Origin: Clostridia bacterium
GTDB lineage: Bacteria; Bacillota; Clostridia; Oscillospirales; CAG-272
Reading direction: 5' to 3'
NCBI GenBank assembly: GCA_017505785.1
Contig: JAFVOQ010000004.1
Location: forward strand, 733-64,732
Length of the DNA stretch: 64,000 bases
Under the pieces are notes generated by a model. That model did not search any database. It saw only the letters and a list, made by a program, of their open reading frames with translations, and was not told the DNA's origin. A program made the position numbers and the translations under genes. Below are positions 4,089 to 64,000 of this stretch, in pieces (the first letter of the stretch is position 1; the number at the start of each line of letters is the position of its first letter).

Positions 4089-7000
4089 TTAATCTTCATA
4101 TTCATCGTTATAATTGTCGTCATCGTCAAATTCGCCATCCATGCCGAAATTATCGATCACGTCACCGTTTTCATCCTCAATGGTAAGATCGCCAAGATCC
4201 CCTTCCTCAAGGCCGCTTTCACCAAGTGCCTCATCGATTGCGGCAAGCTCTGCCTTATTGGAATACGGCAGGGGCTCCTCATCGTTGCAAAGGGTGGAAA
4301 GCTGGATCTCCTCGCCGTTCTTGTCAAGCACGCGCACGTCAAGGGCAAGTGCCTGCAATTCCTTTACCAAAACCTTAAAGGATTCGGGAACGCCGGGCGT
4401 GGGAATGTTTTGACCCTTAATGATCGCCTCGTAAGCACGGCGGCGACCCGTGATATCGTCAGATTTCACGGTGAGGATCTCTTGCAGCGTATATGCGGCA
4501 CCGTATGCCTCCAGTGCCCAAACCTCCATCTCACCAAAGCGCTGACCGCCAAACTGAGCTTTACCGCCAAGAGGCTGCTGCGTGATGAGGGAGTAAGGAC
4601 CGTTTGCACGGGCGTGGATCTTATCGTCAACAAGGTGATGCAGCTTGAGGTAATACATAATACCTACAGTGACGGGGTTGTCAAAGGGATCACCGGTTCT
4701 GCCATCGTAAAGAATGGTCTTACCGTCAATCACCTTTACCTTATCCTCGGCAATGAGGGCTGCGATCTTATCGCTATCGGCGCGCACTTCATCCTCTACG
4801 CGCACGTAGTCCTTCTTGCCGTCGGCATCAACGACCTCATAAAAGAGCTCCTTGCCGTCAACGTTTTCACCGGGGAGGATCTTACGCGCCATGCCTGCCA
4901 TGCGCATGCATTCCATAATATCCTTCTCGTTTGCACCGTCAAATACGGGGGTCATGATCTTCCAGCCGAGGTGACGGGCAGCGATACCGAGGTGAACCTC
5001 AAGCACCTGACCGATGTTCATACGGGAAGGAACGCCCAGGGGATTCAGCACGATATCAAGAGGCGTGCCATCCGGCAGGAAGGGCATATCCTCAGGGGGC
5101 AAAATACGGGAAACAACGCCCTTGTTACCGTGGCGACCTGCCATTTTATCGCCGACGGAGATCTTACGCTTTTGCGCAATATAAACGCGAACCTGCTTGT
5201 TGACGCCTGCGGGCAGCTCGTCGCCGTTTTCGTGAGAGAACACCTTAACGTCAACAACGATACCACTCTCACCGTGGGGCAGGCGCAGCGAGGTGTCACG
5301 CACCTCTCTTGCCTTCTCGCCAAAGATCGCACGCAACAGGCGCTCCTCGGCAGTAAGCTCGGTTTCGCCCTTGGGCGTGATCTTACCGACAAGAATATCA
5401 CCGGCACGCACCTCGGTACCCTTCTTTACAATACCTTCTGCGTTCAGATCCTTGAGAGCATCCTCACCGACATTGGAGATCTCGCGCGTGATTTCCTCCG
5501 GCCCCAATTTGGTATCACGGGCATCGTGCGTGTATTCCTCAATATGAAGCGAGGTATATACGTCATCGCGAACAAGACGCTCGTTTAGCAGAACTGCATC
5601 CTCGTAGTTATAACCCTCCCAAGTCATGAAGCCGATGAGGGCGTTCTTACCAAGCGAGATCTCGCCGTTTGCGGTTGCGGGACCGTCTGCGATCACGCGA
5701 CCTGCTTCCACGATCTCACCCTTGGCAACAATGGGACGCTGATTAAAGCAGGTTCCCTGGTTGGTGCGTTTGAACTTGATCAGCTCATATACGTCACGCT
5801 CACCGTTATCAAGCACGATCTCGATCTTATCGGCATCCACGTAATCTACGATACCGGCACGCTTAGCGGTGATCACAACACCGGAGTCAACAGCCGCCTT
5901 GTATTCCATACCCGTACCAACGATAGGCGAGTCGGTAACCATAAGCGGCACTGCCTGCTTCTGCATGTTAGAGCCCATGAGCGCACGGGAGTTGTCATCG
6001 TTTTCAAGGAACGGGATCATTGCGGTGGCAACAGAAACCACCATTTTGGGGGAAACGTCCATGTAGTCGACCTGCGAAGCCTCAACCTCACGGATCTCGT
6101 TCTTATCACGGGCGTTTACAATTTTATTCACAAAACGACCCTCACTGTCAAGGGGCTCGTTTGCCTGTGCAATAATATAGCGATCCTCAACGTCGGCGGT
6201 CATGTACTCAACCTCGTCGGTTACAACTCCCTTCTCCTTATCGTACTTACGATAGGGAGCCTCGATAAAGCCGTAGTCGCTGATACGTGCATAGGTGGTA
6301 AGGTAGGAAATCAGACCGATATTGGGACCTTCGGGCGTTTCGATCGGGCACATACGGCCGTAGTGCGTGTAGTGAACGTCACGCACGTCAAAGGATGCAC
6401 GGTCACGGGAAAGACCGCCGGGGCCGAGTGCCGAAAGACGACGCTTGTGGGTAAGCTCAGCCAAGGGGTTGTTTTGATCCATAAACTGCGAGAGCTGAGA
6501 GGAGCCGAAAAACTCGCGAATACCCGTAGCAATGGGACGGGTATTGATCAGCATCTGAGGAGAGATCTTATCCGCATCCTGCGTTGCCATGCGATCAGTA
6601 ATGGTCTTGTTCATGCGAGAGAAGCCGATGCGAAGCTGATTTTGCAGCTGCTCACCGACAGAACGGATGCGACGGTTGCCAAGGTGGTCGATATCGTCGT
6701 ACTGGCCAAGACCCTGATCGTGCATCAGGCCCAGCATATAGTTGATCGATGCAAAGATATCATCCTTCGTCACGTGCTTGGGGCAGAGCTCTGCCATACG
6801 GCGGCGCACAAGGGTCTTGAGGGTATCCGCATCGCCCTCTGCCTCCTCCATGATCTCAAGCAGAACGCTTGTGCGAACCTTTTCGTTCACACCGCAATCC
6901 TTCAGATCATAGCCAAGAAGATACTCGGGCTCAATGGTATTGTTGGAGAAGACCTTTACCTGTTCGCCATCCTCAAGCAAAACGGTAACACCGTTGATAC

Positions 7001-8015
7001 CTGCACGCTCAATTGCCAGTGCATCCTCACTTGACAGTACTTGACCTGCCTCGAAGATCACCTCACCCGTAATGGGGCTAACGGCTGCCTCAGCAAGCTT
7101 TCTGCCCGCAATACGTGCTGCAAGGGCAACCTTTTTGTCGAACTTGTAGCGACCGACGGGAGCGATGTCGTAGCGGCGATTGTCAAAGAGAATATCGGAA
7201 AGAAGCTTTTGTGCGGCATCCACCATGGCAGGTTCGCCGGGCCGCAGCTTTTTGTGGATCTCCTTGAGTGCCTCATGGCCGGCAGAGGTGAGATTGTGTG
7301 CGGCAAGGGTTTCGGATTCATCCTTGTCAAAGGTGGCACGCAGACGCGCCTCCTCACCGAAGATCGCGCAAATATCCTCGCGGCTCTCGATCTCCGGCTT
7401 GTCCCCCAAAGCACCGAGTGCACGGATGAACATGGTGATGGGAAGCTTGCGGTTTTTATCGATACGAACGTAGATCACGCCGCTGTTATCGGTTTCATAT
7501 TCCAGCCACGCACCGCGGTAAGGAATAATTTGGGCGGTATAGTTGCGCTTGCCCATTTTATCGATCTCGGATGCGTAGTACATACCGGGTGAACGAATGA
7601 TCTGCGACACAATCACGCGCTCTGCGCCATTGATCACAAAGGTGCCGTTCTCGGTCATCAAGGGAATATCACCCATGAAAATGTCCGAATTTTGCACCTC
7701 ACCCGTTTGCTTGTTTGTCAGGCGCACGGTGACACGCAGGGGGGCGGCGTAGTTTACATCACGCTCTTTGCACTCTTCAACGGTATACTTGGGCTTCTGA
7801 TCGATCGAGTAGGACAGAAACTCAATGGACAGATTGCCCGAGAAATCGGTGATAGGCGACACGTCACGCAAAACCTCACCAAGTCCCTCCTCAAGGAACC
7901 ATTTGAAGGATTTGGTCTGGACCTCCACGAGGTTCGGGAGCTCCAGGGTGTAACGTGCTTTGGAAAAACTCATTCTCTTGTTCTGACCGAGTTTTTGCTC
8001 TTTTACGTTGACCAT
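4089..8015 (-). CDS. rpoB: DNA-directed RNA polymerase subunit beta
   Basis: The ORF 4089..8171 contains [21 protein letters not shown] and [20 protein letters not shown] place the start at the internal ATG 8015 ([17 protein letters not shown]...). That start gives a Bacillus-like N-terminal length and has GGAG 8-11 nt upstream. ATG 8036 is an alternative start. Confidence 0.95.
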
Positions 8016-8188
8016 TTGTTTTATCACTCCATTCATTGTTGTGTCCCCTGCTTGTGCAGTGGACCAGAGTACCAAAACGCTTACATTTGCGCCGCCAGAA
8101 TTCGCGCATACGCGTATATAATAGTTTTGATGAGAAAATTTGCCAAACCCGCAAAAGCGACAATTCAGCAATTATAATGCAGTTTAAT

Positions 8189-8217
8189 ATTATAGCAAAG
8201 CACCCTTCCTTTGTCAA
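8189..8217 (-). promoter_or_regulatory. Consensus sigma-A promoter for rpoBC (TTGACA-17-TATAAT)
   Basis: The minus strand reads TTGACA aaggaagggtgctttgc TATAAT with a counted 17-nt spacer. It lies about 165 nt upstream of the rpoB start. Confidence 0.7.
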
Positions 8218-12169: not shown

Positions 12170-12583
12170 ATGGATAACAATCAAAACAACTTTAATCAAA
12201 ACAATGGGCAAAACGAAGGGTGGTCCTATCAAAGCGGACAGTTTTACACACCCGTGACGCCTATCGATAGCACGGCGATGCAGGCAAACCAATCTGCCTC
12301 CTCCTCCCAAACGCTTGGTATTGTAGGACTGATCATTTCACTTATCTGCTGCCCTTTGATCGGCATCATTCTTGGTATTATTGCGATCAGCAAGGCTTCG
12401 ACAGCAAAAAGCTTGCTTGGACATGAGCCCTCTGAAGCAAAAACGGGACGCATCTGCGGCATCATTGCCATTATTTTGGGTGTGCTCTCCATGATCTTGA
12501 GTGCCATTATATACGTCATTAACATGGCACTGATCATGGAAGCACTGGAGAGCATGATGGTTTGGCTCCCATTCTTCCTGTAA
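12170..12583 (+). CDS. DUF4190-like small membrane protein with an N/Q-rich N-terminus
   Basis: Internal ATG 12170 has an AAAGGAG RBS. The protein reads MDNNQNNFNQNNGQNEGWSYQ... and then GIVGLIISLICCPLIGIILGIIAISKA, a typical DUF4190 helix pair. Confidence 0.7.
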   Translation: MDNNQNNFNQNNGQNEGWSYQSGQFYTPVTPIDSTAMQANQSASSSQTLGIVGLIISLICCPLIGIILGIIAISKASTAKSLLGHEPSEAKTGRICGIIAIILGVLSMILSAIIYVINMALIMEALESMMVWLPFFL

Positions 12584-12593
12584 TCAACAAGGC

Positions 12594-12610
12594 AAAAACA
12601 GCCGCTTCGC
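12594..12610 (+). repeat. Left arm of a perfect 17-nt inverted repeat (AAAAACAGCCGCTTCGC)
   Basis: It is the exact reverse complement of 14112-14128. Further matching blocks (TGTTGTT, CGGAGAAAT) extend the similarity to about 50 nt. Confidence 0.9.
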
Positions 12611-12740
12611 GAAAGCGTGATGTTGTTATCGGAGAAATCACTAACAGCAAAAATTGAATCGCAGAAAACAAAGAGATAACCCCGACAGATTTTTAGGTCT
12701 ATCGGGGTTTGCTTGTGCTGTTCTATAAATTGGAATTTGT

Positions 12741-13409
12741 TTAATTCTTTTCGGCAATCCATTTCTTTGACCAAGCGAACAATGTTTCAGACATCAAATT
12801 GAACTCTACTGTTCTGCCATTTTTCAAATTCAAAAAGGTTTCCACAATGACTCGTTCATCGAAAGATACAACTTGAAGCAAATCCTTTTGATGGATGATA
12901 TAGTTTCCTGTTTGCTTAAAAACAATTGCCTGTACAACAAAAGAAGCAGATTTATACAATCCTCGTAAAATATCTTCGCTCTTTTCATACAGCATATTGT
13001 GTACACATCCATGGAATATGTTGCAGGTACCGATTTTGATTGCTCTGTTCACAACACTTTCATCAATAACTGCCATCACCTCATCAAGGCTTCCCTGAAT
13101 TGGTGTGGTATCATGGCAAAACTGGAACAGGTCAGATGGCTCCCAATTCAAAACTTCACTCTTACCTGAGAGAAAACCACAAATCAAATCCCTGTGAGAC
13201 AGGGTATCCAGCATGTCATTATATGTTTGGATGTCCATGGCCGACAATTCATCAAGAATTACAACAACATCAATATCGCTTGTTTCTGTTGCTTCACCAC
13301 GACCATAACTGCCTTGCAAACCAACAAACCATACACGATTTGCGAAAGTCTCATTTAATGACTTCAAGAAATTTTTCATCCAAGCAGTAATATCTATCAT
13401 CTCAGTCAC
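12741..13409 (-). CDS. Pol-beta-type nucleotidyltransferase with a helical C-terminal domain (KNTase/ANT-like architecture)
   Basis: 222 aa with LQGSYGRGEATETSDIDVVVILD (hG[GS]x9-13DxD NTase signature). The C-terminal ~110 aa are helical. Codon usage is AT-rich. Confidence 0.7.
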   Translation of the reverse strand: MTEMIDITAWMKNFLKSLNETFANRVWFVGLQGSYGRGEATETSDIDVVVILDELSAMDIQTYNDMLDTLSHRDLICGFLSGKSEVLNWEPSDLFQFCHDTTPIQGSLDEVMAVIDESVVNRAIKIGTCNIFHGCVHNMLYEKSEDILRGLYKSASFVVQAIVFKQTGNYIIHQKDLLQVVSFDERVIVETFLNLKNGRTVEFNLMSETLFAWSKKWIAEKN

Positions 13410-13519
13410 CTCGTCAAATTCTTATTTATCGTTCTGTTATTTCGCCAGTTTCGCATTTGTATTACAAATGCATCGGGCAAAGCCCATACCCCTTTGGAGA
13501 TGTACGATAGCGTTCAAAG

Positions 13520-13554
13520 GCTCCCTCCGGGAGGGAGCTGTCAGCGAAGCTGAC
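13520..13554. repeat. Two adjacent short palindromes (CTCCCTCC-GGAGGGAG and GTCAGC-gaa-GCTGAC)
   Basis: Read directly. The first is related to the hairpin at 13631-13649. On the minus strand it would encode SLPEGA, which echoes the SLREGG tail of the DUF559 ORF. Confidence 0.7.
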
Positions 13555-13617
13555 TGAGGGAGAGTGCGTACCAATAAGATTGATCCAACCGAAAAGTCAC
13601 GCAGGCTCCTTCCACCG

Positions 13618-13995
13618 CTAACGCGGTCCCCCTCCCTCTCGGAGGGAGGCTTTCACGGCGGCATCTATATACTCGCAGACACCACGAAAGTTTGTGTTGA
13701 TTTGTCTGTTTGTAAAGCGAATTACCCTCAAATCGTATCCTTCAAGGATTTCAGTTCGAAATTCATCTTTTTGCCTGCCGTCTTCGGTATAATGCTGTGA
13801 GCCATCAATTTCTATAATCAATTTTGCTTTGTGACAATAAAAATCCGCAATAAAATTATCGATTGCTTTTTGACGTTGAAATCTTACTTCGTATTTTGAC
13901 AAGAAATCGTACCACAAATGTTTTTCCTGCGGTGTCGCATTTTTGCGCAGATTTTTGGCAAGAGTAATATTCTTTTCGTTATACTCAAGTGACAT
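13618..13995 (-). CDS. DUF559 / Vsr-like endonuclease domain protein
   Basis: 125 aa with LRKNATPQEKHLWYDFL...FQRQKAIDNFIADFYCHKAKLIIEIDGSQH...D..R...L...G..V.RF.N, the characteristic DUF559 pattern. Confidence 0.85.
   Translation of the reverse strand: MSLEYNEKNITLAKNLRKNATPQEKHLWYDFLSKYEVRFQRQKAIDNFIADFYCHKAKLIIEIDGSQHYTEDGRQKDEFRTEILEGYDLRVIRFTNRQINTNFRGVCEYIDAAVKASLREGGGPR
13631..13649. repeat. GC-rich hairpin CCTCCCTC-tcg-GAGGGAGG in the 3' end of the DUF559 gene
   Basis: 8-bp stem with a 3-nt loop, read directly. Confidence 0.7.
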
Positions 13996-14111
13996 ATTTA
14001 CTCCTCCCCATATTCATTGTTTCCATTACATCACAAAATCGGCAGAAAGAAAAGTCCTTCTGCCGAAATTTTTGTGCTTGCAATTTCTCCGTTAAGAACA
14101 ACAGAGAAATT

Positions 14112-16111: not shown

Positions 16112-17101
16112 TTAGCTTCTTGCCAAGCGCAGTGCCACCAAAACCTTTTCCTGTGCTTCCTCGATGCTGTCAGCACTAACAGTTGCGCCTGCGGCTCGCA
16201 CATGACCGCCGCCGCCAAAGCTTGATGCAACAGCAGCCACGTCAAAATCAACATTAGAACGCAAGGAAACGCGAAAATCGCCCTTAATGGTACCGCGGAT
16301 CGCTACGGCAACCTCGACCCCTGCCACACACCGTGCGACATCGATCAGTGTTCCCAAATGCTCCTCGCGCACGTCAAGCTCTTGCTGTAATGCATACGGG
16401 AAGGTTATGATCGCGATCTTGCCCTCTTCAAAAAAGCGAAGGCGTTCAAAGCCTGCTTTTTCAGCCTTCAAGCCCTGATACGATCTCGTTTCAAAAAGCC
16501 TTCGGTTGATCTCTGCAGTATCAATTCCCTGCTTTACCAGTGCCGCCGCGTGCAAATGCGTGCTCTCGGTCACATTTGAATACCGAAAGCATCCCGTATC
16601 CGAGGAAATGGCGGCATACAGCAATGACGCCGTGCGGGGCGGCACGTCAACACCCGATGCGGCAATCAAATCAAAGATCACCTCACCGCACGCAGCCGCC
16701 TGTGGCACCACCAAATGATCGGCATACGGCGTACCTGTGCCGTGGTGGTCGATCATCAAAGAAACACGGTCACCGAAGTGCTCGAAAAGACTGCCCATTT
16801 GCGCGGGAGATGCGGTATCAACCGTAACGATACGGGCATTTTCAAACCCCGTTGGGATACTTTCCGCCAATACACTCTCCTGCAAGTCCGCTGACAAAAA
16901 GGAAAGATATTGCGGCACCTCGTCGGCACACACACAGTAGCACCTGCTCCCCATGGCAGCAAGCCACAGGGAAAGCGCAAAGGCAGATCCCACGGCATCC
17001 CCGTCCGGCCTTGTGTGAAAGCAGATCAGTGTGGGGGCGGGGGGCGTAAGGCGTGCAACCGCCTCATCGACTGTGAGTGCGCGAAATTCAGTCTTCGCCA
17101 T
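16112..17101 (-). CDS. nrnA: DHH/DHHA1 phosphoesterase (NrnA-like oligoribonuclease/pAp phosphatase)
   Basis: Motifs HTRPDGDAVGS, DHHGTG and GGGGHVRAAG. I chose the start at ATG 17101 (MAKTEF...), which has a GAGGTG RBS and overlaps the rbfA end by 14 nt. The ORF itself extends to 17134. Confidence 0.85.
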   Translation of the reverse strand: MAKTEFRALTVDEAVARLTPPAPTLICFHTRPDGDAVGSAFALSLWLAAMGSRCYCVCADEVPQYLSFLSADLQESVLAESIPTGFENARIVTVDTASPAQMGSLFEHFGDRVSLMIDHHGTGTPYADHLVVPQAAACGEVIFDLIAASGVDVPPRTASLLYAAISSDTGCFRYSNVTESTHLHAAALVKQGIDTAEINRRLFETRSYQGLKAEKAGFERLRFFEEGKIAIITFPYALQQELDVREEHLGTLIDVARCVAGVEVAVAIRGTIKGDFRVSLRSNVDFDVAAVASSFGGGGHVRAAGATVSADSIEEAQEKVLVALRLARS

Positions 17102-30916: not shown

Positions 30917-31344
30917 AGCTGCTTGTGATCAACGGACCCAACCTCAATATGCTCGGCATCCGCGAGCCCGAAATATACGGCGAGCGCAATTACGCCTCGC
31001 TTTGCGCCTACATTACCGATGCCGCCGCCGAGGCAGGTGTATCCTGCGAGATCTACCAATCCAATCATGAGGGTGCGATCGTAGATAAAATACAAGAAGC
31101 ATACAGCAAGGTTGACGGCATTGTGATAAACCCCGCCGCCTACACACATACCAGTGTAGCGATCGCCGATGCGCTTTCTGCCGTCGCGATCCCAACGGTT
31201 GAGGTGCATTTATCCGACGTGACAAAGCGTGAGAGCTTCCGCCACCACTCCTTTGTTGCACCGATTGCTAAAAAAACCTATATGGGACTTGGCTTTGAGG
31301 GATACAAAAAAGCCATTCGCTATCTTACAAAGAATGAAGATTAA
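30913..31344 (+). CDS. aroQ: Type II 3-dehydroquinate dehydratase
   Basis: MKLLVINGPNLNMLGIREPEIYG, NPAAYTHTS and EVHLSD motifs. Confidence 0.96.
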   Translation: MKLLVINGPNLNMLGIREPEIYGERNYASLCAYITDAAAEAGVSCEIYQSNHEGAIVDKIQEAYSKVDGIVINPAAYTHTSVAIADALSAVAIPTVEVHLSDVTKRESFRHHSFVAPIAKKTYMGLGFEGYKKAIRYLTKNED

Positions 31345-31353
31345 ACAAAAAGA

Positions 31354-31397
31354 GGCTGTCGCAAATTTTTTGCAATTTGCGACAGCCCCTTTTTTCT
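31354..31397 (+). terminator. Rho-independent terminator ending the aro operon
   Basis: GGCTGTCGCAAATT ttttgc AATTTGCGACAGCC followed by CCTTTTTTCT. Confidence 0.88.
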
Positions 31398-31578
31398 CTT
31401 TCACTCGACATTTCCAAACATTTTGTGTTATTTTCCAATTTTGCAATATATTTTTTCTAATTTTATTTTTTGATTTTTCTTGATTTTATCAAACAGTGCC
31501 CGAGAATTTTCGCGTTTTCAAAAAACGACTTTTTTGGGCGTTGCCAAAGCCCTTGTCAACGCCCAACCTTTTTTCGCT

Positions 31579-60559: not shown

Positions 60560-60659
60560 AAAAGCACTGCTTTCTTTGCCTTTTCTTCCAAAACTGCATC
60601 AACTTTTTCAATCACCGCAAAAATTTACAAAACAAGTTTTGCATTTTTTAAAAAAGCTA

Positions 60660-60688
60660 TTGCTTTTTGCAATTTCATGTGCTATAAT
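60660..60688 (+). promoter_or_regulatory. Promoter upstream of the tRNA-Ser region (TTGCTT-17-TATAAT)
   Basis: TTGCTT at 60660-60665, a counted 17-nt spacer, and TATAAT at 60683-60688. Confidence 0.6.
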
Positions 60689-60731
60689 AACACATGTTTT
60701 GAGTCACAATGTAAGCAAAACATAATATTTT

Positions 60732-60960
60732 GGAGAAGTACTCAAGTGGGGACGTTTGCGAGCGCTGCCGGTGGCGGATGAAGGAAGGCGAACGAGTGTG
60801 CAGCCTGTCCTCGGCTATCGCCGAGCACTGCAAGTTTGCCTTTGGCAAACATTGCGCGTCAAAATTTGGCGAAGCGAACAGCGAGCAACAAATTTTGGGC
60901 ACCGCAACAGGGTCGAAGAGGCGACGCCGACTCCCGAACATTCCTGCAAGATGCTTTTCT
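60732..60960 (+). ncRNA. Structured, non-coding-looking segment carrying a split copy of the tRNA-Ser 5' half
   Basis: GGAGAAGTACTCAAGTGG (60732-60749) matches tRNA positions 1-18 at 17 of 18. GGTCGAAGAGGCG (60911-60923) matches the following 13 nt exactly. The 161 nt between them contain several clean hairpins. No T-arm or 3' acceptor strand is present. Confidence 0.45.
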
Positions 60961-60979
60961 GACAATTTAATATTTTTAT

Positions 60980-61070
60980 GGAGGAGTACTCAAGTGGTCG
61001 AAGAGGCGTGACTCGAAATCTCGTAGGCCGTTAACGCGGCGCGTGGGTTCAAATCCCACCTCCTCCGCCA
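60980..61070 (+). tRNA. tRNA-Ser (anticodon CGA), class II with long variable arm, CCA encoded
   Basis: Manual fold: acceptor GGAGGAG/CTCCTCC, D-arm CTC-AAGTGGTCGAA-GAG, anticodon loop CT-CGA-AA, long variable arm, T-arm GTGGG-TTCAAAT-CCCAC, discriminator G plus CCA. Confidence 0.9.
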
Positions 61071-61075
61071 AAAAA

Positions 61076-61107
61076 GGACTGCCCCCCCTCGTGGGCAGTC
61101 CTTTTTT
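61076..61107 (+). terminator. Rho-independent terminator after tRNA-Ser
   Basis: GGACTGCCC cccctcgt GGGCAGTCC followed by TTTTTT. Confidence 0.85.
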
Positions 61108-61287
61108 GGTATCACATTTCTTTTCACGACAACTGATTCTTTTCCGGTTCATTCTTCAATTATATATTCTTTTAATATTCTCATAATGAAATCCGCACTA
61201 GCAGGAGTATCTTCTTTTCAATTTTTCCAACTTAACATGGATGCAAAATTTAGTGATTAGAGACAACGTGTCTCGAGTCTTATTTAC

Positions 61288-61316
61288 TTGACAACAAATT
61301 GCCACTATGATATACT
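61288..61316 (+). promoter_or_regulatory. Promoter for the two-gene cassette (TTGACA-17-TATACT)
   Basis: TTGACA at 61288-61293, a counted 17-nt spacer, and TATACT at 61311-61316. Confidence 0.65.
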
Positions 61317-61352
61317 TGTATAAAGTTCTCAATGTTTTAAGAGGAGCCATTT

Positions 61353-61565
61353 ATGAGTGTTAACAACTTTATCATTAAAAACTGTGAGTTAATTTCTGAA
61401 GACACCTCGATTGCATTATCTGGCGGTACAATCTCGGAATTAATAGCAACTTTAATTTGCAAGCAAGCAGAAAATGCAGACGAATCCTACGACACCATTG
61501 ATCTTTACAAAAAAATTGAAAAACACATAAGTGAAGCAATTAGCCACTGCGAAACAATGTTTTAA
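61353..61565 (+). CDS. Small acidic hypothetical protein (70 aa)
   Basis: AGAGGAG RBS. The protein reads MSVNNFIIKNCELISEDTSIALSGGTISELIATLICKQAENADESYDTIDLYKKIEKHISEAISHCETMF. I recognise no family. Its stop is 32 nt before the next gene. Confidence 0.6.
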   Translation: MSVNNFIIKNCELISEDTSIALSGGTISELIATLICKQAENADESYDTIDLYKKIEKHISEAISHCETMF

Positions 61566-61597
61566 AAAGACACTCTCTAACTATTTTGGAGGAAAAC

Positions 61598-62680
61598 ATG
61601 TCATCAAAACCTAAGGTATTTGTTATAACTCCTTTTAATGAGGATTTGCTCGCACTATACGAAAAACTCAAACGCACATTTGCAGATGAGTATGATTTTA
61701 ACAACGCCGGTGATTTAGATAACCAGCAAAATATTTTACGAGATATTGTTGAAGGCATACATGCCGCGGATGTTATTATCGCTGATTTAACGGGATTAAA
61801 CGCAAATGTTTTCTACGAGTTAGGATTAGCTCATGCCATGAATAAAAAAGTCATTATTATTACTCAAGACTTGAGCGAACTTCCTTTCGATATTAAAAGT
61901 TATCGCGCGAATGAATACAGTTTATTATTCTATAAGTTGCCTAACCTAATCGACAAACTAAAAGAACTATTAGCAGGTGCTATTAATGGTTCTATTCAAT
62001 ATGGAAATCCCGTATCTGATTTTATTCCCCACCTTCCCATTGCTAAACCCGAAAGTTCACCGCAGATATTAGACAACCCGCCATGTGAAAACATAGGTGA
62101 ATCAAGCGAAGGAGAAAATGGCTTTTTAGATGATATAGCCGACATACAAGAAAATGCCGATAAATTGACAAATGAGTTAAACCACATGACCGATGAATTG
62201 CAAGATCTGAATACCGCTGTAGAAGCTGCAAATCAAGATATTAATCGTGTCAAAAGTAAAAGTGGCGTCACAGATATATCGTTTGTTAGAAGTATTTGCC
62301 GCAAATTAGCCATTCCCACCGACAAACTTGCTAACCAAATCAAGATGCACAACGCAGAAATTGCAAACTATTGGAAAATTATCGAAAATAGTTATTTGTC
62401 TTTATTAGACAATAAATATGCGAGAACGCCCGATAATCTTAAGGGCTTGAGAGATTCGGTTTCTCAATTGCGAAATATGCAGCTTAGCATCAAGGGTTCA
62501 AACGAAAAGATCGAGTCGTTCGTTGCTGTGTTAAAAACAACTATGGGGATAGAACGCAAACTTAATCAAGCCGTCACAGCCCTGATAACAGAATTTGAAG
62601 CATATCTGCGCCAAACGGATACGATGCATTCCTCGATTGATAGAATTATCAGTAAAAGCAATTTAGTAACAGGTAATTAA
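61598..62680 (+). CDS. Nucleoside 2-deoxyribosyltransferase-like / TIR-like Rossmann domain fused to a ~200-aa coiled-coil region
   Basis: ATG 61598 has a GGAGG RBS at 61588-61592. The N-terminus reads KVFVITPF...DIVEGIHAADVIIADLTGLNANVFYELGLAHAMNKKVIIIT, the pattern I associate with NDT-like/TIR-like N-glycosidase folds (conserved Glu at 61817-61819). The C-terminal half is heptad-like and rich in E/K/N/L. Confidence 0.6.
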   Translation: MSSKPKVFVITPFNEDLLALYEKLKRTFADEYDFNNAGDLDNQQNILRDIVEGIHAADVIIADLTGLNANVFYELGLAHAMNKKVIIITQDLSELPFDIKSYRANEYSLLFYKLPNLIDKLKELLAGAINGSIQYGNPVSDFIPHLPIAKPESSPQILDNPPCENIGESSEGENGFLDDIADIQENADKLTNELNHMTDELQDLNTAVEAANQDINRVKSKSGVTDISFVRSICRKLAIPTDKLANQIKMHNAEIANYWKIIENSYLSLLDNKYARTPDNLKGLRDSVSQLRNMQLSIKGSNEKIESFVAVLKTTMGIERKLNQAVTALITEFEAYLRQTDTMHSSIDRIISKSNLVTGN

Positions 62681-62699
62681 CACCCTATCTTATTCAGTC

Positions 62700-62736
62700 C
62701 CGCACGCCCTTTTGGGCGTGCGGATTTTGTTTATTT
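62700..62736 (+). terminator. Rho-independent terminator after the cassette
   Basis: CCGCACGCCC tttt GGGCGTGCGG followed by ATTTTGTTTATTT. Confidence 0.85.
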
Positions 62737-63250
62737 CCCCTCCCCCAATGCTTCGTCAATGGTCATCGCGCACTCTGCGGTGCTGGCGGCGTCCACTGTG
62801 GCACACTTCGTATGATGTTCGCCGTTGTGGAGATGTTACTGTGACCCAGCCACTGCCCAATCAGCTTCATTTGCACGCCCTGCGCGACAAGGAGCGAAGC
62901 GCAGGAGTGGCGCAGGTCGTGGAAGCGAATGTGCTTGAGGTCGTTCTGCCGCAGGATCGTGGCAAAGCGGTTGCTCACGTAATCGGGCGTGACAGCTCGC
63001 CCAGCGCGTTCAGGCACACGTAGTCCGCATCCTTGCGACAATACGCGTTGCCAAGCACCTTGGCGCGCTCCTTTTGCTTTTCTCGCTCCTCCAGAAGCAG
63101 CGCCTTGATGGCGGGGCTTAAACCAAGCGCGCGGTGCGAGGACACGGTCTTCATCACGTCATAACCCACAGGTCCCTCGGGTGTGTGCCGCACGCTGCCG
63201 TAAGGCGCAACGTTGCCACGCTAAAGCTCCTCCAAGATGTTAGCCATTCC
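62731..63250 (-). pseudogene. Tyrosine recombinase/integrase remnant (catalytic domain only, with frameshifts and an in-frame stop)
   Basis: Two ORF fragments in different frames (62975..63193 and 62763..63041) together read KTVSSHRALGLSPAIKALL...HIRFHDLRHSCASLLVAQGVQMKLIGQWLGHSNISTTANI. A 1-nt shift occurs just before the expected catalytic Tyr (NI-YEV in the neighbouring frame). There is a stop after MANILEEL. The N-terminal SAM-like domain is absent. Confidence 0.75.
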
Positions 63251-63322
63251 CCTCACCTCCCGATGCAAAAACGGCGGCCGCGCTACCGAGATCACTCTCG
63301 GCAATGCAGTCGCCGTTTTGTT

Positions 63323-63484
63323 TCATTTTTCTGCTGCGATCAGCGTCTGACGGACGATTTCTAGCTCCAAGCGCGTTTGCTCGTCCACCGTTTTGTCTGG
63401 TACCAACAGCATCGCCTTGAACACTTCGCCCATCACGCCGTAGCGCTCCCCGTAGTATAGTTCTTTCACTGTGATTTTTGCCAT
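63323..63484 (-). CDS. Small ORF (53 aa) with a strong RBS, upstream of the integrase remnant
   Basis: Own translation gives MAKITVKELYYGERYGVMGEVFKAMLLVPDKTVDEQTRLELEIVRQTLIAAEK. AGGAGG lies 7 nt upstream. It falls below the ORF-track length cutoff and is followed by a hairpin. Confidence 0.4.
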   Translation of the reverse strand: MAKITVKELYYGERYGVMGEVFKAMLLVPDKTVDEQTRLELEIVRQTLIAAEK

Positions 63485-63594
63485 TTTTGCTACCTCCTAT
63501 GTTGGTAGCACACACTATACCACAAGTTTTCGGGAAAGTCCAGAAAAGAAAGTGTTAAATTTCAAAAGTGCAATATAAAAATGGAGTCTTATTC

Positions 63595-64000
63595 TCACTC
63601 ATTTTCCCACTCCATCTCCGCTTGTTTTAAAAAAGTTAAATTTTTATTTCTTCTTAAATCATCAAATCCCCGTTTTCCAAATATGCTCACAAGATTTTTT
63701 ATATATGTTTTCACTGCATTGGATGAGTGATAAAGAATAAAAATTCTATTTGACAGATCAAACAAATCGATAATAATATCTTGATCTGTTATATCAAGCG
63801 AATGCCCTATAACATATAAAGAATAGCCGTTATCATATTTACGGGTTTGATTCAATGCTTGAATTTTGTTCAAATACGAATCATCCGTCTTAAAAAACAC
63901 CCTTTGGAAATATTTTTTGAATTGAATGAAAGTAGTATCTAATTGCATTAACTCGTCTCGTTCATCTGGATTTATTCCAAGAACAATATCTTTGTCAACA
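63595..64000 (-). CDS. AbiH-like abortive infection protein, C-terminal part (gene runs off the right edge)
   Basis: YSLYVIGHSLDITDQDIIIDLF matches the AbiH-family GHSL..D motif region as I remember it. The reading frame stays open upstream of the listed Met to the window end (..DKDIVLGINPDERDELMQLD..). Very AT-rich. Confidence 0.6.
   Translation of the reverse strand, partial: VDKDIVLGINPDERDELMQLDTTFIQFKKYFQRVFFKTDDSYLNKIQALNQTRKYDNGYSLYVIGHSLDITDQDIIIDLFDLSNRIFILYHSSNAVKTYIKNLVSIFGKRGFDDLRRNKNLTFLKQAEMEWENE

Follow-up and report, generated by a model that had tools for sequence, protein, structure and literature searches.

The 64,000-nt stretch of DNA analysed here (the window) belongs to an uncultured gut Clostridia/Oscillospiraceae bacterium of a herbivore-gut lineage. 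Its only tRNA gene, a complete tRNA-Ser(CGA), adjoins a flotillin gene. Downstream of the tRNA terminator lie an AT-rich module with two genes, a GC-rich block containing a decayed tyrosine integrase gene, and a second AT-rich module with the 3' part of an AbiH gene; upstream of the tRNA are further pieces of tRNA sequence (Table 1). The subject of this work is the putative integrative element at tRNA-Ser(CGA) to which these parts point, and the genes accumulated around it.

Table 1. Features of the tRNA-Ser(CGA) region in the window
Feature	Position	Strand	Evidence or remark
Putative promoter and leader of the native tRNA-Ser	60681..60730	+	gctataataacacatgttttgag conserved with L004, L005
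Putative 5' remnant of the native tRNA-Ser (tRNA positions 1-18, allele GGAGAAG)	60731..60748	+	direct repeat
Insert of ~160 nt interrupting the tRNA remnant in the D loop	60749..60910	.	common to L004, absent from L005, L097
Second putative tRNA 5'-remnant piece, then degenerate spacer	60911..60979	+	13-nt exact repeat, spacer alignment
Complete tRNA-Ser(CGA)	60980..61070	+	ARAGORN; Rfam 53.6 bits
Bidirectional-terminator hairpin after the tRNA	61068..61109	.	17-nt arms, 100% complementary, flanking A and T runs
AT-rich module 1, GC 0.36	61110..62699	+	composition; promoter; Pfam, PADLOC; structure model, Foldseek
70-aa ORF	61353-61565	+	ORF list
360-aa ORF	61598-62680	+	Pfam Nuc_deoxyrib_tr
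GC-rich hairpin terminator closing module 1; 3' flank of the integrase remnant	62700..62723	+	terminator scan
Tyrosine integrase pseudogene, C-terminal ~150 aa	62732..63176	-	Pfam PF00589; three-frame translation
DUF6809 gene, N-terminal fragment with in-frame stop	63177..63244	-	translation MANILEEL*RGNVAPYGSVRHTPE
53-aa ORF of the old element	63323..63484	-	ORF list; called in L001, L098, L102
Promoter-like motif upstream of the 53-aa ORF (TGGACT, 17 nt, TG-TATAGT)	63513..63559	-	promoter scan
AT-rich module 2, GC 0.29	63560..64000	-	AbiH 3' part
AbiH, C-terminal 134 codons; gene runs off the window	63595-64000	-	Pfam AbiH

The tRNA gene was located by ARAGORN and Rfam (the latter run also at relaxed thresholds), protein domains were assigned by Pfam and defence systems were sought with PADLOC 2.0. 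GC content was measured in 500-nt windows, and GC at third codon positions (GC3) was computed for each open reading frame (ORF). With the flotillin protein as query, 553 confirmed relatives were found in species-representative genomes and the best 80 loci were kept. Only two of these 80, the sister-species loci L004 and L005 (~85-86% DNA identity to the window over ~12 kb), keep tRNA-Ser(CGA) beside the flotillin gene; the other 78 gave nothing on the tRNA-Ser site. The comparison also included L096, a more distant relative without flotillin but with the tRNA and its terminator; L097, a relative with a different genomic context; L084-L086, conspecific contigs obtained by exact look-up of the flotillin protein; L001-L003 (independent assemblies) and L098-L103, conspecific contigs carrying the island or its downstream part; and L106 and L107, metagenome contigs from another host. 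The source contig of the window (64,898 nt) ends ~166 nt past it (at about 64166), inside AbiH.

The shifts in base composition after the tRNA are real and sharp. The upstream 60.9 kb has a GC content of 0.523 ± 0.048 (first percentile 0.384), and the values for the blocks 61108-62690, 62700-63520 and 63560-64000 are 0.356, 0.572 and 0.293. GC3 is 0.352 for the 70-aa ORF, 0.335 for the 360-aa ORF and 0.259 for the AbiH fragment, more than 4 standard deviations below the 0.590 ± 0.051 of the long ORFs of the window; it is 0.69-0.74 for the integrase pieces and 0.65-0.74 for the remnant genes of the element overall. A preliminary description of this DNA had reported an abrupt change of composition right after the terminator, and the measured course of GC (from ~0.52 to 0.36, 0.57 and 0.29) bears out both the change and the coordinates given for it; the sliding-window GC and codon-usage profile was not flat, and GC3 agreed. 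The order that it had described, an AT-rich two-gene block, a GC-rich block with a decayed integrase and an AT-rich block with an AbiH-like gene, was likewise found by Pfam and in the ORFs.

The decayed integrase and the variable slots beside it

The integrase fragments in the GC-rich block match the Phage_integrase model (172 positions) from position 101 to position 163 (E 4e-12). The whole N-terminal half is missing (~375 nt in comparison with L097), the frame is shifted near 63000, and in a DNA alignment the Tyr-Ser-His codons of L096 and L097 (TATAGCCAC) are replaced by 17 nt (ATACGAAGTGTGCCACA), a lesion that removes the catalytic Tyr codon and shifts the frame. The remnant is 88-91% identical to P0121 and P0123, and L096 has the same integrase, 88% identical, as a 243-aa remnant. 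Because the gene is truncated, frameshifted and has lost its Tyr codon, it is a pseudogene, and the island cannot be autonomously mobile. Fused to the middle of the integrase is the DUF6809 fragment; the homology of L098 to the window begins at 63176, and there DUF6809 is an intact gene of 90 aa. The idea that the 53-aa ORF, which had no Pfam match, and the DUF6809 piece represent the N-terminus of the integrase was dropped: DUF6809 is a separate gene in L098, and the intact integrase of L106 starts differently. The promoter-like motif upstream of the 53-aa ORF forms the edge of the GC-rich block. Copies with 83% identity occur in L005 (12848-12894) and L004 (12573-12601) just before a CoA-disulfide reductase gene, which is preceded by a second copy of the motif in L098-L102 as well.

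Homology of L004 and L005 to the window reaches as far as 61071-61072, where the tRNA has its last base, and that of L096 extends through the terminator hairpin to 61108. Module 1 was absent from the tRNA-adjoining position in L004, L005, L096 and L097, and neither module 1 nor AbiH was present in the first three of these loci. The slot between the tRNA terminator and the 3' end of the integrase, which is occupied by module 1 in the window, holds an RNase III-like gene in L005 and four genes, WapI and T5orf172 domains among them, in L096; it is empty in L097 and L106, where the integrase lies 54-175 nt from the tRNA. The integrase remnant is kept in two of the three loci L004, L005 and L096; L004, which has lost that copy, has a 126-aa ORF after the tRNA. 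The window segment 62700-62907 (hairpin and integrase 3' end) is 94% identical to L005 12547-12754 and 85% identical to L005 16913-17099, and the Tyr-codon lesion is common to the window and both L005 copies and found in neither L096 nor L097. L005 also keeps both flanks of the AbiH position, without AbiH. Since pieces of the GC-rich block are common to the sister species, the remnant of the element predates the sister-species split, and the AT-rich modules are lineage-specific additions to its two sides.

These comparisons bear on two further statements of the preliminary description. The distance of the integrase from the tRNA had been taken as a sign of nested or successive insertions. The integrase adjoins the tRNA in intact or less decayed relatives (L106 and L097), and the cargo of the slot differs between the window, L005 and L096, which is the pattern predicted by nested, successive insertion. 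The comparison with related genomes itself showed a variable region, in which L004, L005 and L096 do not share the same genes at this position.

A side observation concerns the gene that fills the slot in L005 (11974-12534): it is solitary, AT-rich (GC 0.38) and encodes a 186-aa RNase III-domain protein, possibly a stand-alone defence or toxin gene.

Differences were found between conspecific contigs, too. Over 11,959 nt, L084 shares 99.97% identity with the window, which it leaves just after the anticodon loop of the tRNA, near 61019-61026; L086 behaves likewise, and L085 leaves the window sequence at 61041. The divergence of near-identical contigs within the tRNA gene means that the site remains in use, and it is polymorphic today. 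The L085 junction (2442-2576) is a third type among the conspecifics, with identity ending at the border of the variable arm and the T stem; the 135 nt past it had no match among the fetched loci or viral contigs. Viral contigs were scanned with the junction tails of L084 and L085 and with the second tRNA (see below), and no matches emerged. L001-L003 begin inside the tRNA and carry the island identically, from the 3' part of the tRNA through AbiH, as one piece.

The conspecific contigs L098-L103 reach further downstream and are 99-100% identical to the window across the overlap. In L098, the place that the integrase remnant has in the window is taken by DUF6809, an HTH_17 gene and the beginning of HsdM, a methylase gene of type I restriction-modification. 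AbiH and an ORF of 49-51 aa form an AT-rich insert of ~1.5 kb in these contigs. Beyond it are GC-rich genes for a 245-aa protein and an 87-aa HTH_17 protein, followed by the second copy of the promoter-like motif with a hairpin, and by the CoA-disulfide reductase and TauE genes. The latter two genes are found downstream of the tRNA in L004 and L005 as well.

Pieces of tRNA-Ser(CGA) and the mode of integration

A less decayed picture of the element family is offered by the contigs from another host. In L106 and L107 a tRNA-Ser 5' half that belongs to a different host, and is cut at the identical point (GACTCGAAAT), is followed by a spacer and then by a complete tRNA-Ser(CGA), a terminator, an intact 391-aa integrase gene in the opposite orientation, and genes for an HTH_17 excisionase-like protein and a PemK toxin; the L106 integrase has 45% identity to the remnant in the window. 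The tail of L084 beyond its junction consists of an unrelated spacer of ~150 nt and the start of a second, different tRNA-Ser(CGA), and is 91-95% identical to L106 and L107. An alternative account of L084, a mini-insertion of ~190 nt in which a spacer is followed by a 5' half that runs into the host 3' half, was rejected: the 3' side of the second tRNA matches L106 and not the window. The L084 insert thus includes the 3' half of the second tRNA and is not an element 5' half joined to a host 3' half. We infer that crossover in this family takes place at the 7-nt anticodon loop of tRNA-Ser(CGA) and that each element provides a whole tRNA-Ser. On integration such an element would split the host tRNA gene, leave its 5' half dead and bring in tRNA-Ser, terminator and a convergent integrase gene; the attachment site of the element (attP) would then read X-GACTCGAAAT-TTTGTAGTCAC, with the complete tRNA ~150 nt away.

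In the window, two copies of tRNA 5' parts precede the tRNA gene and are collinear with it: 60722-60749 repeats 60970-60997 (28 nt, 86%), and 60911-60923 is identical to 60996-61008 (13 nt exact). The remnant at 60731-60748 is found in L004 too, and its acceptor allele, GGAGAAG, is the one that the sister species carry. In the present tRNA, GGAGGAG pairs with CTCCTCC; this tRNA is identical to the one beside the integrase in L097, whose genomic context differs. Taken together, the identical tRNA in another context and the sister-species allele of the remnant support, without proving, an element-borne tRNA. Equivalent 5' remnants are present in L004, L005 and L097, and the end of the spacer 60911-60979 aligns with the L097 and L005 spacers. 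In L096 the native promoter leads to an unsplit tRNA: blastn aligned window positions 60643-60749 straight onto the start of that gene. Since the upstream 5' remnants match the split-tRNA signature of the intact relative, the tRNA of the window is probably island-borne, with remnants of the 5' half of the native gene at 60731-60950, and the ancestral island probably starts near 60731, ~250 nt further upstream. The preliminary description had let the island begin immediately 3' of the tRNA. This holds for the synteny, which stops at the tRNA or its terminator, but probably not for the ancestral start. It had also found no copy of the tRNA 3' end within the window, and none was detected between the tRNA and the window end with up to 3 mismatches allowed; the upstream 5' copies at 60722-60749 and 60911-60923 had escaped it.

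The insert that interrupts the remnant (60749-60910) is GC-rich and has internal palindromes, e.g. GCAAGTTTGCC/GGCAAAC. It had no Rfam match, relaxed thresholds included; Rfam gave just the tRNA and terminator look-alikes.

As to the other end of the element, it lies outside the window, as the preliminary description had concluded. A likely counterpart is seen in L005, where 16553-16697 is a degenerate tRNA copy running from the anticodon loop (CTCGAAAT) to CCA, with a disrupted T arm. This tRNA 3' half is followed by a second integrase remnant and then by genes common to L096, encoding a 259-aa membrane protein, DUF3810, RluD and YbaK. Because the crossover site appears to be the anticodon loop, the far-end repeat of the element family would start at CTCGAAAT, and not solely at the tRNA 3' end. 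In the genome under study the far end would lie beyond the CoA-disulfide reductase gene, as a degenerate tRNA 3' half; the repeat would start at CTCGAAATCTCGTAGGCCG, before the DUF3810, RluD and YbaK genes, and should be several kilobases beyond 64000.

A conserved non-coding motif of ~120 nt (GGTGCTTTGCGAAACCTCGGCGGC...CGCAAGTCG...GGCGCAACAAATAG) was observed after the tRNA-Ser terminator or pseudo-tRNA in four relatives: L004 (12085-12205), L005 (16589-16733), L096 (reverse, about 7600-7725) and L097 (reverse, about 4130-4255). It could be an arm-type attP site or a small RNA. The window lacks it and has module 1 in its place.

The genes of the AT-rich modules

Module 1 has a promoter at 61288-61316 (TTGACA, 17 nt, TG-TATACT) that agrees with the consensus at 11 of 12 positions and includes the TG motif. 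The start of the 360-aa ORF is ATG 61598, the start on record, rather than TTG 61586; exact look-up of the 364-aa TTG-start form gave no match. The 360-aa protein scored 31.8 bits on Pfam Nuc_deoxyrib_tr (PF05014; cut-off 28.8). Against PADLOC it gave a 65-residue match to a TIR-effector model and coiled-coil noise. No PADLOC 2.0 system component was matched over its full length, and the 70-aa ORF had no match at all. An AlphaFold2 model built from 32 homologues (mean predicted local distance difference test score 78) suggests two parts. Residues 1-130 are predicted to adopt the fold of nucleoside 2'-deoxyribosyltransferases, of DNPH1 and of the TIR-STING TIR domain; the top Foldseek matches (7o62, DNPH1, TIR-STING) had probability 1.00 and target-normalised TM scores of 0.6-0.69, with a best E-value of just 2e-3. 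Residues 176-359, a C-terminal part of ~185 residues, are modelled as four long helices. A PDB sequence search with the family profile returned weak DNPH1 and coiled-coil matches at most. Glu74, in a YELG motif and the putative acidic catalytic residue, is invariant in the 32 homologues. The protein might thus be an N-glycosidase or NADase-type enzyme head on a helical-bundle tail serving as sensor or for oligomerisation.

The 360-aa family comprises 1340 proteins at E<=1e-5, and the 120 best matches listed are conserved over the full length, with 52-74% identity. Three homologue contexts were inspected: one gene adjoins GmrSD, methylase and helicase genes; another PLD-helicase, NUDIX, HNH and GmrSD genes and an IS66 fragment; the third is solitary, with a GC content of 0.315 in a locus of 0.567. 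Plasmid and phage collections contained just relatives of the N-terminal domain, annotated as hypothetical. The closest homologue of the 70-aa ORF (60% identity) has no neighbour resembling the 360-aa protein, and the upstream neighbours of 360-aa homologues are other genes or none. Because homologues of each occur without the other nearby, the two genes, which are predicted to form one transcription unit here, do not appear to be a conserved pair or system; the term two-gene cassette, used in the preliminary description, is apt for the transcription unit and not across genomes. The solitary homologue, P0054 (L088-L091; Pseudoflavonifractor sp. An176 and metagenomes), stands between genes for a tRNA U5-methyltransferase and a branched-chain amino-acid transporter and clearly exemplifies the insertion of a single gene.

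The AbiH fragment of module 2 scored 33.5 bits on PF14253 (cut-off 30.9). The full-length conspecific protein P0259 (405 aa) scored 109.5 bits and covered nearly the whole model. The subgroup is small and divergent, with 14 proteins at E<=1e-5 in 5.8 billion. The product recorded for the source contig is a 189-aa fragment without a start codon. The gene is polymorphic among conspecifics, intact (405 aa) in four contigs and split (63 + 194 aa) in two. The source contig and L001 both end at the point where the AbiH variants differ (...YLKNF).

AbiH and the 360-aa protein probably act against phages, as far as homology can tell. The cargo had been called defence-type in the preliminary description. 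Based on homology and neighbourhood, we regard the label as reasonable for AbiH and plausible for the 360-aa protein.

Origin of the island and its relation to known systems

Taking the above observations together, we read the region as the tRNA-proximal portion of an integrative element, old and no longer mobile, whose locus at tRNA-Ser(CGA) has become a slot for the turnover of accessory, mostly defence-type, genes (probability roughly 0.8). The tRNA of the window would be a replacement copy, and the upstream remnant the 5' half of the native gene. After the integrase had died, module 1 would have inserted into the spacer that separated it from the tRNA terminator, and module 2 upstream of the promoter of the 53-aa ORF. 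Three of the features by which Islander recognises islands are present: a complete tRNA at one end, a tyrosine integrase gene inside (here a pseudogene), and site content that is absent or different in L004, L005 and L096 and in the conspecific L084-L086 and L098. As to a fourth, a displaced piece of the tRNA at the other end, the window has 5' pieces upstream and no 3' piece downstream, and L005 has a 3' half. As a kind of feature this is common, well known and well supported; the unusual detail is that the tRNA apparently arrived with the island.

Several points weigh against this reading. The contig of this genome ends within AbiH, short of the far boundary. The 5' tRNA remnant of the window is interrupted and degenerate, and the allele argument depends on two nucleotides. 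The link between the flotillin flank and the island depends on the assembly of the window itself: the independent island contigs L001-L003 start inside the tRNA, and contigs with the same left flank leave the window inside the tRNA. Both integrase remnants of L005 carry the identical lesion, which means that the tandem copy was not made by its own integrase and calls for action in trans or a segmental duplication. The mechanism by which the modules entered is not visible, for no repeats or transposase genes flank them; the search for target-site duplications or terminal inverted repeats bounding the AT-rich modules gave short, chance-level repeats only. The 70-aa ORF is nearly an orphan, with five relatives among 1.84 billion representative proteins. 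Finally, the defence role is predicted from sequence; PADLOC gave just a partial TIR-effector match for the 360-aa protein and no match for the AbiH fragment.

The points of the tRNA argument would fall differently if the tRNA were native, the element had integrated at its 3' end, the island started at 61108 and the tRNA-like pieces upstream were unrelated debris. In favour of this, the homology of L004 and L005 breaks off precisely at the 3' end of the tRNA, the tRNA of L096 is unsplit and has the same integrase remnant behind it, and a 3' fragment is what the majority of mapped islands leave (3760 versus 159 with a 5' fragment; Islander, PMC4383910). Against it, two collinear copies of the tRNA 5' part lie 60-250 nt upstream, L004, L005 and L097 have the same layout, and L084, L106 and L107 directly show the anticodon-loop split and a whole tRNA carried by an element of this family. 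We therefore consider a native tRNA unlikely. The possibility that the AT-rich modules were the original cargo of the integrating element appears still weaker. Parts of the element flank the modules on both sides, and separate insertion is not marked by repeats or transposase genes, but the integrase abuts the tRNA in L097 and L106, L005 and L096 share the remnant with other genes in the slot, L005 keeps the flanks of the AbiH position without AbiH, and the GC3 of the modules (0.26-0.35) differs from that of the remnant genes (0.65-0.74).

Conspecific contigs break or diverge inside the tRNA, and L001 stops where the source contig does. This could also mean that the contig was assembled as a chimera through the 91-nt tRNA, which is repeated in the metagenome. 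Such a join is very improbable: in the sister species, with the same left flank, this tRNA is likewise followed by the integrase remnant and the CoA-disulfide reductase block, to which L098-L103 connect the island, and L001-L003 confirm the 3' part of the tRNA, module 1, integrase and AbiH as one piece. Least credible of all are native genes that are AT-rich by chance, in the absence of horizontal transfer. The window does contain a few other low-GC patches, but the genes are absent at all related loci, their GC3 is more than 4 standard deviations low, and there is variation at the strain level.

The immobilised-element reading places the locus among known systems. tRNA-targeting genomic islands and prophages with tyrosine integrases have reportedly been described by Williams in 2002. 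As in these, a tyrosine integrase adjoins the tRNA, crossover would occur in the anticodon loop and tRNA fragments are found at the ends; tandem arrays and decay are already known for this class. Accretion beside integrative and conjugative elements in Streptococcus, of the type known from cis-mobilisable elements (CIME), piles up dead elements with att-like sites at one tRNA-linked site. Tandem dead elements with att-like sites are found here, too, with newer elements integrating beside them, but no conjugation genes were seen and the units are much smaller. Defence islands or hotspots in E. coli and Pseudomonas hold variable defence genes between conserved flanks. The present locus resembles them in offering one position to varied cargo (AbiH, deoxyribosyltransferase/TIR-like, HsdM, RNase III-like, T5orf172, WapI) and differs in that its slots are bordered by what remains of a dead element, not by core genes, and that the host is an uncultured gut anaerobe. 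Anticodon-loop crossover is the commonest class among the islands mapped by Islander (2083 of 3919; PMC4383910). In the usual islands the tRNA fragment of attP restores the split host gene (PMC4383910), whereas here the host 5' half would stay dead, and the complete tRNA-Ser is a separate gene located 130-230 nt into the element.

At the level of the cargo, the near full-model domain match of the conspecific 405-aa protein resembles AbiH of Lactococcus (PF14253); unlike it, the gene belongs to a small divergent subgroup, is represented by its C-terminal 134 residues in the window and is split in some conspecific copies. The 360-aa protein shares with TIR effectors of cyclic-oligonucleotide-based antiphage signalling systems (CBASS), with TIR-STING and with DNPH1 the matches of its N-terminal 130 residues to PF05014, the PADLOC TIR-effector model and the predicted folds. 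It differs from the CBASS TIR effectors and TIR-STING in its four-helix C-terminal fusion and in having no SAVED, STING or NTPase partner.

With its exact junctions now given, the locus documents a dead tRNA-linked element that has turned into a slot for defence-gene exchange between strains and species of an uncultured herbivore-gut lineage. Two leads go beyond the routine: a tRNA-replacing integration mode, and a widespread, AT-rich, often solitary 360-aa family in defence neighbourhoods. The chances seem evenly balanced that small elements of gut Clostridia leave split tRNA-Ser(CGA) halves dead and bring their own tRNA, and that the fossil found here anchors a platform of defence genes including a candidate deoxyribosyltransferase/TIR-like family with more than 1300 members. 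If so, the cell's tRNA-Ser(CGA) at this locus would be the copy of the element, and the remnant would be an anchored, stable platform for defence-gene turnover. Island finders that seek a 3' fragment fused to the host 5' part would misplace the boundary of elements with such a tRNA-replacing mode.

Elsewhere in the window, a second low-GC patch (12240-14000, GC 0.36-0.39) contains genes for a domainless 176-aa ORF, a nucleotidyltransferase (NTP_transf_2/Polbeta) and a DUF559 endonuclease-like protein, flanked by a metallo-beta-lactamase-fold gene and a beta-lactamase-family gene; it may represent a further small accessory insertion. Other short stretches where GC drops below 0.40 (500-nt windows) are located at about 7900-8200, 31200-31500 and 45800.

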